The notes under the pieces: generated by a model
Seen by the model: only the letters and a program-made list of their open reading frames with translations
Database searches by the model: none
What the model was told of the DNA's origin: nothing
Shown: positions 3,202 through 3,485 of the stretch, piece after piece
Position numbering within the stretch: the stretch's first letter is position 1
How the letters are laid out: each line of letters opens with the position of its first letter
Translations under genes and position numbers: made by a program
Source of the DNA: Eledone cirrhosa
Taxonomy: Eukaryota
NCBI GenBank assembly: GCA_964016885.1
Contig: OZ024746.1
Coordinates: forward strand, 10,168,001 to 10,232,000
Length of the DNA stretch: 64,000 bases
Direction: 5' to 3'

Positions 3202-3280
3202 CCCATATATATATATACATATATATCATATATATATATACATATATCATATATGGAAACTATATTTATAAAACCATAAT

Positions 3281-3346
3281 TATTTTATTATATATATTTC
3301 AAGGGCGACCAAGGTAAAATATGGTGCGCTTTCATCAGATAAAATA
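3281..3346 (-). ncRNA. Hammerhead ribozyme, opposite arm of the 3252-3485 inverted repeat
   Basis: Near-exact reverse complement of 3391-3454 with intact core. Confidence 0.8.
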
Positions 3347-3390
3347 CAGATTTGTTTTATAAATAAATATTGACATACCCTGTAAATCTG

Positions 3391-3454
3391 TATTTTATCT
3401 GATGAAAGCGCACCATTTTACCTTGGTCGCCCTTGAAATATATATAATAAAATA
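3391..3454 (+). ncRNA. Minimal type I hammerhead ribozyme (TATATA stem III family)
   Basis: tattttat-CTGATGA-aagcgcacca..tggtcgccctt-GAAA-tatata-TA-ataaaata. Confidence 0.85.
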
Positions 3455-3485
3455 ATTATGGTTTTATAAATATAGTTTCCATAAT

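Follow-up and report, generated by a model that had tools for sequence, protein, structure and literature searches.

Unit A, a fold-back hammerhead locus of the window (the whole 64-kb stretch of DNA that was analysed), is composed, with a probability of about 0.8, of two 5'-truncated, hammerhead-bearing repeat ends that lie head to head between TA microsatellites, likely the product of one integration of a Penelope-type element (PLE), probably of the Hydra clade, whether autonomous or a non-autonomous derivative. We infer a PLE origin for unit A and for its diverged relative, unit B. The clade is assigned less firmly than the PLE origin because no ORF adjoins either unit and because their stem III begins with A-U, where the published Hydra table has A-C. 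The original prediction had not assigned the unit to the PLEs. The window is AT-rich animal DNA of octopus-like appearance, rich in TA, CA and CAT microsatellites, and its features are collected in Table 1.

Table 1. Hammerhead units and associated features, in positions of the window
Feature	Position	Strand	Description
TA-rich microsatellite, left of unit A	3140..3251		
Unit A left arm	3252..3353 (102 nt)	-	element 3' end, type I hammerhead and tail
Left-arm hammerhead	core 3338-3332; GAAA 3300-3297	-	predicted cleavage after 3289
Unit A 'spacer'	3354..3383 (30 nt)	-	
Unit A right arm	3384..3483 (100 nt)	+	type I hammerhead and tail
Right-arm stems	stem I 3391-3398 with 3447-3454; stem II 3406-3434; stem III 3438-3445	+	stem III palindromic
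Right-arm core and ends	core 3399-3405; GAAA 3435-3438; tail 3455-3481	+	predicted cleavage after A3446
TA-rich microsatellite, right of unit A	3484..5070		
Unit D	21980..22225		hammerhead 22066 (-) with rearranged inverted partner
Unit B, inverted copy of element 3' end	27052..27068 (17 nt)	-	at the 5' junction with (TA)n
Unit B, second subfamily	27069..27252	+	hammerhead 27146-27211, tail to ~27252, then (TA)n
Unit B hammerhead	core 27154	+	predicted cleavage after 27203
Unit C	28070..28412		near-perfect palindrome; hammerheads 28170 (-) and 28311 (+); stem I sequence of A
Unit F	42281..42616		near-perfect 336-nt palindrome; hammerhead 42557 (+); left arm with stem III change
Unit C'	59352..59581		hammerhead on -, GAAA changed to GAUA; 62-nt fold-back; ~92% identical to C
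Unit E	59578..60520	+	5'-truncated PLE body
Unit E, inverted piece	59578-59663		copy of 59800-59885
Unit E, GIY-YIG fragment	~59664-60007		CxxC..E..N..CxH; then 3' UTR and own hammerhead

Architecture of unit A

The two arms of unit A are identical at 100 of 100 aligned bases and differ in addition by one 2-nt indel at 3320-3321. The original prediction had placed a hammerhead in each arm, and the descriptor indeed locates two cores on opposite strands, at 3399 (+) and 3338 (-). Both hammerheads comprise an 8-bp stem I, a stem II of 29 or 31 nt, GAAA, a palindromic 8-nt stem III and a UA cleavage site. The CUGANGA, GAAA and UH core elements stand in type I order, with three helices, in both arms as well as in unit B. 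No site for the strict hammerhead descriptor occurred in 100 local dinucleotide shuffles, and the wide descriptor, with eight real sites in the window, found on average 0.065 (maximum 1) in 200 shuffles. Rfam hammerhead models were absent from the 30 matches (up to E 10) at 3250-3490 and from the 150 listed of 338 matches. Rfam miRNA matches were set aside, as they reflect hairpins and TA runs.

The region was predicted to hold arms of about 100 bp around a spacer of about 32 bp. The arm length stands, at 102 and 100 nt; the spacer measures 30 nt and is mostly the longer copy's own upstream sequence: 3354-3381 belong to that copy, the left one, and stay unpaired, and 3382-3383 are the junction. 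Unit A is thus a 130-nt copy on the minus strand joined to a 100-nt copy on the plus strand, because the family depth over 3354-3377 is like that of the left arm and contigs of the public runs X4 and X5 go past 3380 into non-palindromic sequence. In the left copy, this spacer part is predicted to lengthen stem I by ~12 bp by way of the tail (centroid structure).

The 5' end of the left copy (3374-3381, minus strand) presents 8 nt that are also found among the first 16 nt of the Hydra-1_Obim consensus as published. Other family copies fold back at the same motif, and unit B has a similar one just before its stem I. The motif could be a true 5' end or a chance likeness; a universal end seems disfavoured by the family sequence found upstream of it in X4 and X5.

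Comparison of units A and B and selection on the fold

Unit B, placed at 27053-27240 in the original prediction, differs from unit A at one of eight positions in each strand of stem I, at one of seven in the core (N7, U to G), at none of four in GAAA, at none of eight in stem III plus UH, and at 2 of 27 in the tail. Its short inverted copy of the 3' end matches in 15 of 17 columns. The shared 3' end, the inverted copy, the change at N7 and a stem II that differs and yet still pairs had all been predicted, and all are borne out. The accompanying claim that stem I of B is held by G-U pairs was overstated, as six of its eight pairs are Watson-Crick and two are G-U. Unit B also resembles a version of unit A that has lost 27 nt between two TGT triplets immediately before stem I (3354-3390 versus 27135-27146), the segment absent from B being that for which an extension of stem I is predicted in A.

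The change in stem II is concentrated in three compensatory pairs. In outer stem II, which has six positions per strand, the six substitutions between A and B amount to three compensatory Watson-Crick doubles, and a C-C mismatch is retained. Under random placement of six substitutions this pattern has a P of 0.0006-0.011, according to the transition bias assumed, for a 6-pair window picked after seeing the data and a single pairwise comparison. With the six arms of A, B, C and C' taken together, every one of the 96 cells is paired, and both partners have changed in 5 of the 16 pairs, a number as high as this being reached in 1 of 500 shuffles; the count covers three lineages only, draws its structure from the same sequences and is not a significance test. 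An alignment slid by -2 columns gives four both-side pairs too, but with pairing of only 61.5%. Stem I, the core, GAAA and UA are common to A, B and C.

Variability in the wider family was taken from public runs, in reads at least 80% alike only. The 21 variable positions listed, out of 50 rows, fall mainly in the loop and inner stem II (8), outside the ribozyme (7) and in outer stem II (4); one lies in stem I, where it produces U-G, one in stem III, where it produces G-U in the dimer, and none in the catalytic core. Several unrelated inner stem II hairpins are seen among family contigs.

These data support selection on the fold for stem II and stem I. The original prediction, that selection acts on the fold and not on sequence, holds in its first half, in that pairing of both stems is kept; its second half does not stand, since the core, stems I and III and the 27-nt tail (2 of 27 changed) are evidently conserved as sequence. 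Selection most likely acted on source elements rather than on the inserted copies, because GAAA has become GAUA in C', stem III is altered in the left arm of F, and a fold-back arm is predicted to be unable to fold. Purifying selection in the source elements would explain the compensatory changes of stem II, and copies decay once inserted, as is shown by the damaged C', D and F.

The covariation in stem II might instead have been made by mutation, through template switching at quasi-palindromes that rewrites one strand from the other. Local inversions are evident in this material, as in the right arm of D and the inner stem II hairpins of family contigs, and two of the three A/B compensations include a CpG on one side. 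Such rewriting, however, would be expected to erase the pyrimidine mismatch at pair 4, which is kept in A, B and C while the flanking pairs change. The changes in stem I, moreover, yield G-U and not Watson-Crick pairs, and the core is invariant except at N7. We therefore consider a purely mutational origin of the covariation unlikely.

Neighbouring hammerhead units and the PLE body

Six hammerhead units occur in the window; all of them adjoin a TA-rich run and have an inverted partner, 17-170 nt long. In seven of the eight arms tested, a run of at least four TA units begins 27-52 nt after the cleavage site. The original prediction covered A and B and omitted the four further units, namely C, C' together with E, D, and F. 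Units C, D and F, which belong to different families, each end on (TA)n on one or both sides, and the fold-backs of C, C' and F turn at self-complementary centres that leave hardly any loop or none. Stem III of unit C is an 8-nt palindrome different from that of A and B. In the right arm of unit D, stem II and GAAA have given way to an inverted copy of the flank of stem III, and the unit's right end has an extension with a motif that resembles, by eye, the ends of Hydra-1_Ajap and Hydra-2_Ajap. The hammerhead of unit F has, again by eye, the published Hydra pattern.

Unit C' is joined by a 4-nt shared motif to the inverted piece of the endonuclease ORF of unit E, whose own hammerhead (core 60396) has an unusually long stem II of ~90 nt and a stem I of only 3 bp. 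The fragment matches Pfam GIY-YIG with E 0.005, below cutoff. An exhaustive protein search returned 2665 relatives, and 131 of the best 150 carry CxxC..E..N..CxH; a word-based search, by contrast, gave no long endonuclease relative among 103 candidates. The full-length relatives P0087, P0096 and P0167 include a reverse transcriptase (RT) with RW(R/K), DKT and YRDD motifs. Together with the endonuclease motif, these correspond to the description of the Hydra clade in PMC8557442. The protein regions that bear on the CxCX5C linker, the absence of CCHH and the RWK and DKT motifs are truncated away in the window and were seen only in these three relatives. A 'CP' match to the Hydra linker in the ORF at 59621 was rejected as spurious, since the inverted piece supplies the first 14 residues of that ORF.

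No RT or endonuclease ORF lies beside A or B, and tblastn with four long relatives matched only 59.5-60.0 kb in the window. The link of the endonuclease fragment to C' is a junction, since the fragment ends in its own, different hammerhead; its link to A and B consists only of a common hammerhead design and target.

Further features of the window include a 443-nt fold-back at 62160-62602, with 88% arm identity and no hammerhead core, that stands beside a minisatellite and recurs in part at 60780-60900. A LINE-type fragment embedded in microsatellites at 12707-13810 (+) contains a PHD finger (Pfam E 1e-6) and matches RT weakly. Probable host exons were found at 38878-40227 and 35787-36092 (+); the ORF at 38878-40227 has two relatives, one of them 59% identical, and no Pfam match.

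Family copies in public sequence runs

Matches to 3250-3486 were found in 3143 contigs of X1, 30 of X4 and 4 of X5 and in 26,252 reads of X11, counts that come from 4 of the 13 runs listed, under three organism labels, and do not represent genomic copy number. The X11 reads are unfit as a measure of copy number, as many of them apparently start at one restriction-type site in stem II and belong to one subfamily. Degenerate patterns had no match in metagenome and viral contigs. B-like stem II sequences are frequent among the loose ends of family reads.

Only 619 of the 3143 contigs and 333 of the 26,252 reads are at least 99% alike, and both arms of unit A have the same minority letter at 3279/3456. 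The arms resemble each other far more closely than family members usually do and have this letter in common, which points to one template for both.

Fold-back points other than that of unit A were detected in raw reads at 3346/3381 (13 reads), 3380/3380 (7) and 3381/3381 (4), and in 19 reads two copies meet tail to tail, separated by a short TA run wherever the letters are given. Copies of the A family are not uniformly folded back: one-ended copies and at least three inversion points were seen instead of a uniform two-ended structure. In X11, 12,716 reads go on beyond the tail (3482) into one non-TA consensus, with an agreement of 0.81, which could represent an extended tail, a larger element or a tandem unit.

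Units A and B would be dispersed monomers, and the fold-back a side product, if they derived from a non-LTR retrozyme, that is, a self-cleaving tandem repeat that yields circular RNAs and borrows PLE machinery. The type I hammerhead, the palindromic stem III, the lack of an attached ORF and the high copy number all agree with this idea; a derivation of retrozymes from PLE pLTRs is argued in the available part of a recent preprint (bioRxiv 10.64898/2026.07.22.740005), and the X11 reads beyond the tail could stem from a tandem or longer unit. The window, however, contains no direct, head-to-tail tandem copy of A or B, the copies are 5'-truncated with a fixed tail end on (TA)n, and the sole end-to-start joint among those listed is the tail-to-tail one over a short TA run. 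The non-TA continuation, in turn, could be an optional PLE tail. We judge a retrozyme origin improbable.

With its long terminal inverted repeats and TA flanks, unit A recalls a DNA transposon of the MITE or fold-back type that is bounded by 100-bp terminal inverted repeats, targets TA and has captured a hammerhead. Family copies nevertheless pass 3380 without folding back, others fold back elsewhere, the inverted end of B spans 17 nt only, and the G-U pairs and compensations imply an RNA stage, all of which makes a DNA transposon very unlikely.

Palindromes sometimes arise during library preparation and assembly. None of the contigs listed bridges the junction of unit A or spans the whole unit, as would be expected if the fold-back were a sequencing or assembly artefact. 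Yet the arms of A differ by a 2-nt indel and those of C and F at a few sites, opposite-strand joints recur at the same family position in independent raw reads, with three to four start points, and unit B and the hammerheads are independent of the fold-back. An artefactual fold-back is thus highly improbable.

Proposed mechanism of integration

On the PLE reading, a GIY-YIG endonuclease would nick (TA)n, and reverse transcription would begin 35-50 nt downstream of the hammerhead cleavage site. The template RNA would be uncleaved at the hammerhead site, because every copy spans that site. After ~130 nt, the cDNA may switch template onto itself and copy the 3' end anew; alternatively, the second nicked strand may prime on the same template. 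The outcome would be a unit with both outer ends formed by element 3' ends facing (TA)n. Snap-back is favoured by the centres of C, C' and F, with their little or no loop, and the 17-nt inverted end of B would fit either snap-back or two-strand priming.

A more far-reaching proposal is that these units are uncatalogued, very abundant, short non-autonomous hammerhead retroelements that use Hydra-clade machinery to enter (TA)n and as a rule do so as fold-backs. It would correspond to ~1 unit per 10 kb, if the window is typical, and we advance it only tentatively, as a possibility that we doubt.

Predicted folding of the ribozyme and of the fold-back

In the source element, cleavage by the hammerhead would be expected to take place in a dimer held together by the palindromic stem III. 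The short palindromic helix III of PLE dimer hammerheads is present in A/B and in C, in each case as a perfect 8-nt palindrome with a predicted duplex energy of -3.2 kcal/mol in A/B and -10.5 in C. Single arms have weak RNAfold z-scores (0 to -2.2), which were given no weight as support. No RNA run is among the 13 public runs listed for the stretch.

The hammerhead-constrained fold of the whole of unit A lies 91-94 kcal/mol above the minimum, compared with 3-7 for single arms, and the antisense arm is transcribed first, whichever the direction. The fold-back copy is accordingly predicted by modelling to be unable to form the hammerhead and to be dead, and its read-through RNA to fold into a 100-bp hairpin in place of the ribozyme. 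A ribozyme or hairpin RNA that the host has selected for a function of its own, for which the intact core of both A arms might speak, is barely credible, as unit A is one among thousands of copies, its near-identical arms suggest youth and not conservation, the core is damaged in the sister copies C', D and F, and the fold-back is predicted to block the hammerhead fold.

Comparison with known systems

As a single locus, unit A has little weight, being another hammerhead-bearing end of the Penelope type, truncated and inverted. How PLEs make inverted ends and what their hammerhead does are described as open in PMC11167929 and in the available text of PMC8557442. Thousands of junctions and many subfamilies would let natural variation serve as a mutational scan of the PLE hammerhead, and the junctions, if real, would directly test snap-back against two-strand priming. 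Read-through transcripts, if they exist, would supply editing or small-RNA pathways with perfect double-stranded RNA in large amounts.

The hammerheads of PLEs, according to the accessible part of Cervera and de la Pena 2014 (PMC4209133), are of type I, with a short palindromic helix III and a long helix II, and occur mostly as solitary truncated copies, with opposite-strand pairs 100-700 bp apart and covariation-rich families; they act as dimers through stem III (PMC4209133; PMC6765202, likewise in the portions available). Units A and B resemble them in the type I fold, the palindromic helix III, the long helix II, the truncated copies, the opposite-strand pairs and the covariation. They differ from what that part of PMC4209133 describes in a stem I of 8 bp, as against 4-5 bp, with a possible 12-bp extension in A. 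They differ also in a helix II that closes with A-U: it begins A-U, G-C in B and A-U, A-U, G-C in A, so that G-C is reached at the second or third pair. In C, helix II begins with three A-U pairs. PLE-type dimer hammerheads are marked by an extra nucleotide after A9 and a G10.1-C11.1 pair.

For the Hydra clade, the available text of Craig et al. 2021 (PMC8557442) reports insertion into (TA)n, hammerheads, inverted 5'-truncated copies and one-ended tails. Penelope-13_HM, of a Hydra family, has a hammerhead on each strand, and Hydra-1_Obim is also catalogued there. A PLE protein has been found to nick AT-rich DNA, to extend both nicked strands and to start reverse transcription inside unprocessed RNA (PMC11167929). 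The units described here share with the clade, as portrayed in those sections of PMC8557442, the (TA)n target, the hammerhead tens of bases from the 3' end and the inverted 5'-truncated copies, and unit E, not A or B, shares the endonuclease CxxC and CxH around E and N. Stem III of A, B and C starts with A-U, whereas that of the hammerheads in the published table always starts with A-C; the hammerhead and tail of A and B match, by eye, neither Hydra-1_Obim nor any family tabulated in the text at hand, and A and B have no ORF.

Non-LTR retrozymes form head-to-tail arrays of 150-450 bp in the consulted portions of PMC7229834 and bioRxiv 10.64898/2026.07.22.740005. Units A and B are similar to those of PMC7229834 in being non-coding and AT-rich, with a type I hammerhead and presumed PLE machinery, but are dispersed, 5'-truncated and head to head, in contrast to the head-to-tail arrays reported in that portion of the paper.

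The literature search found no paper on this particular family, which repeat databases (Repbase, Dfam) may hold. PLE hammerheads, their covariation and their opposite-strand pairs have been known since 2014, and Hydra-clade hammerheads in (TA)n since 2021; what distinguishes the present units is only their high density and the record of their junctions.
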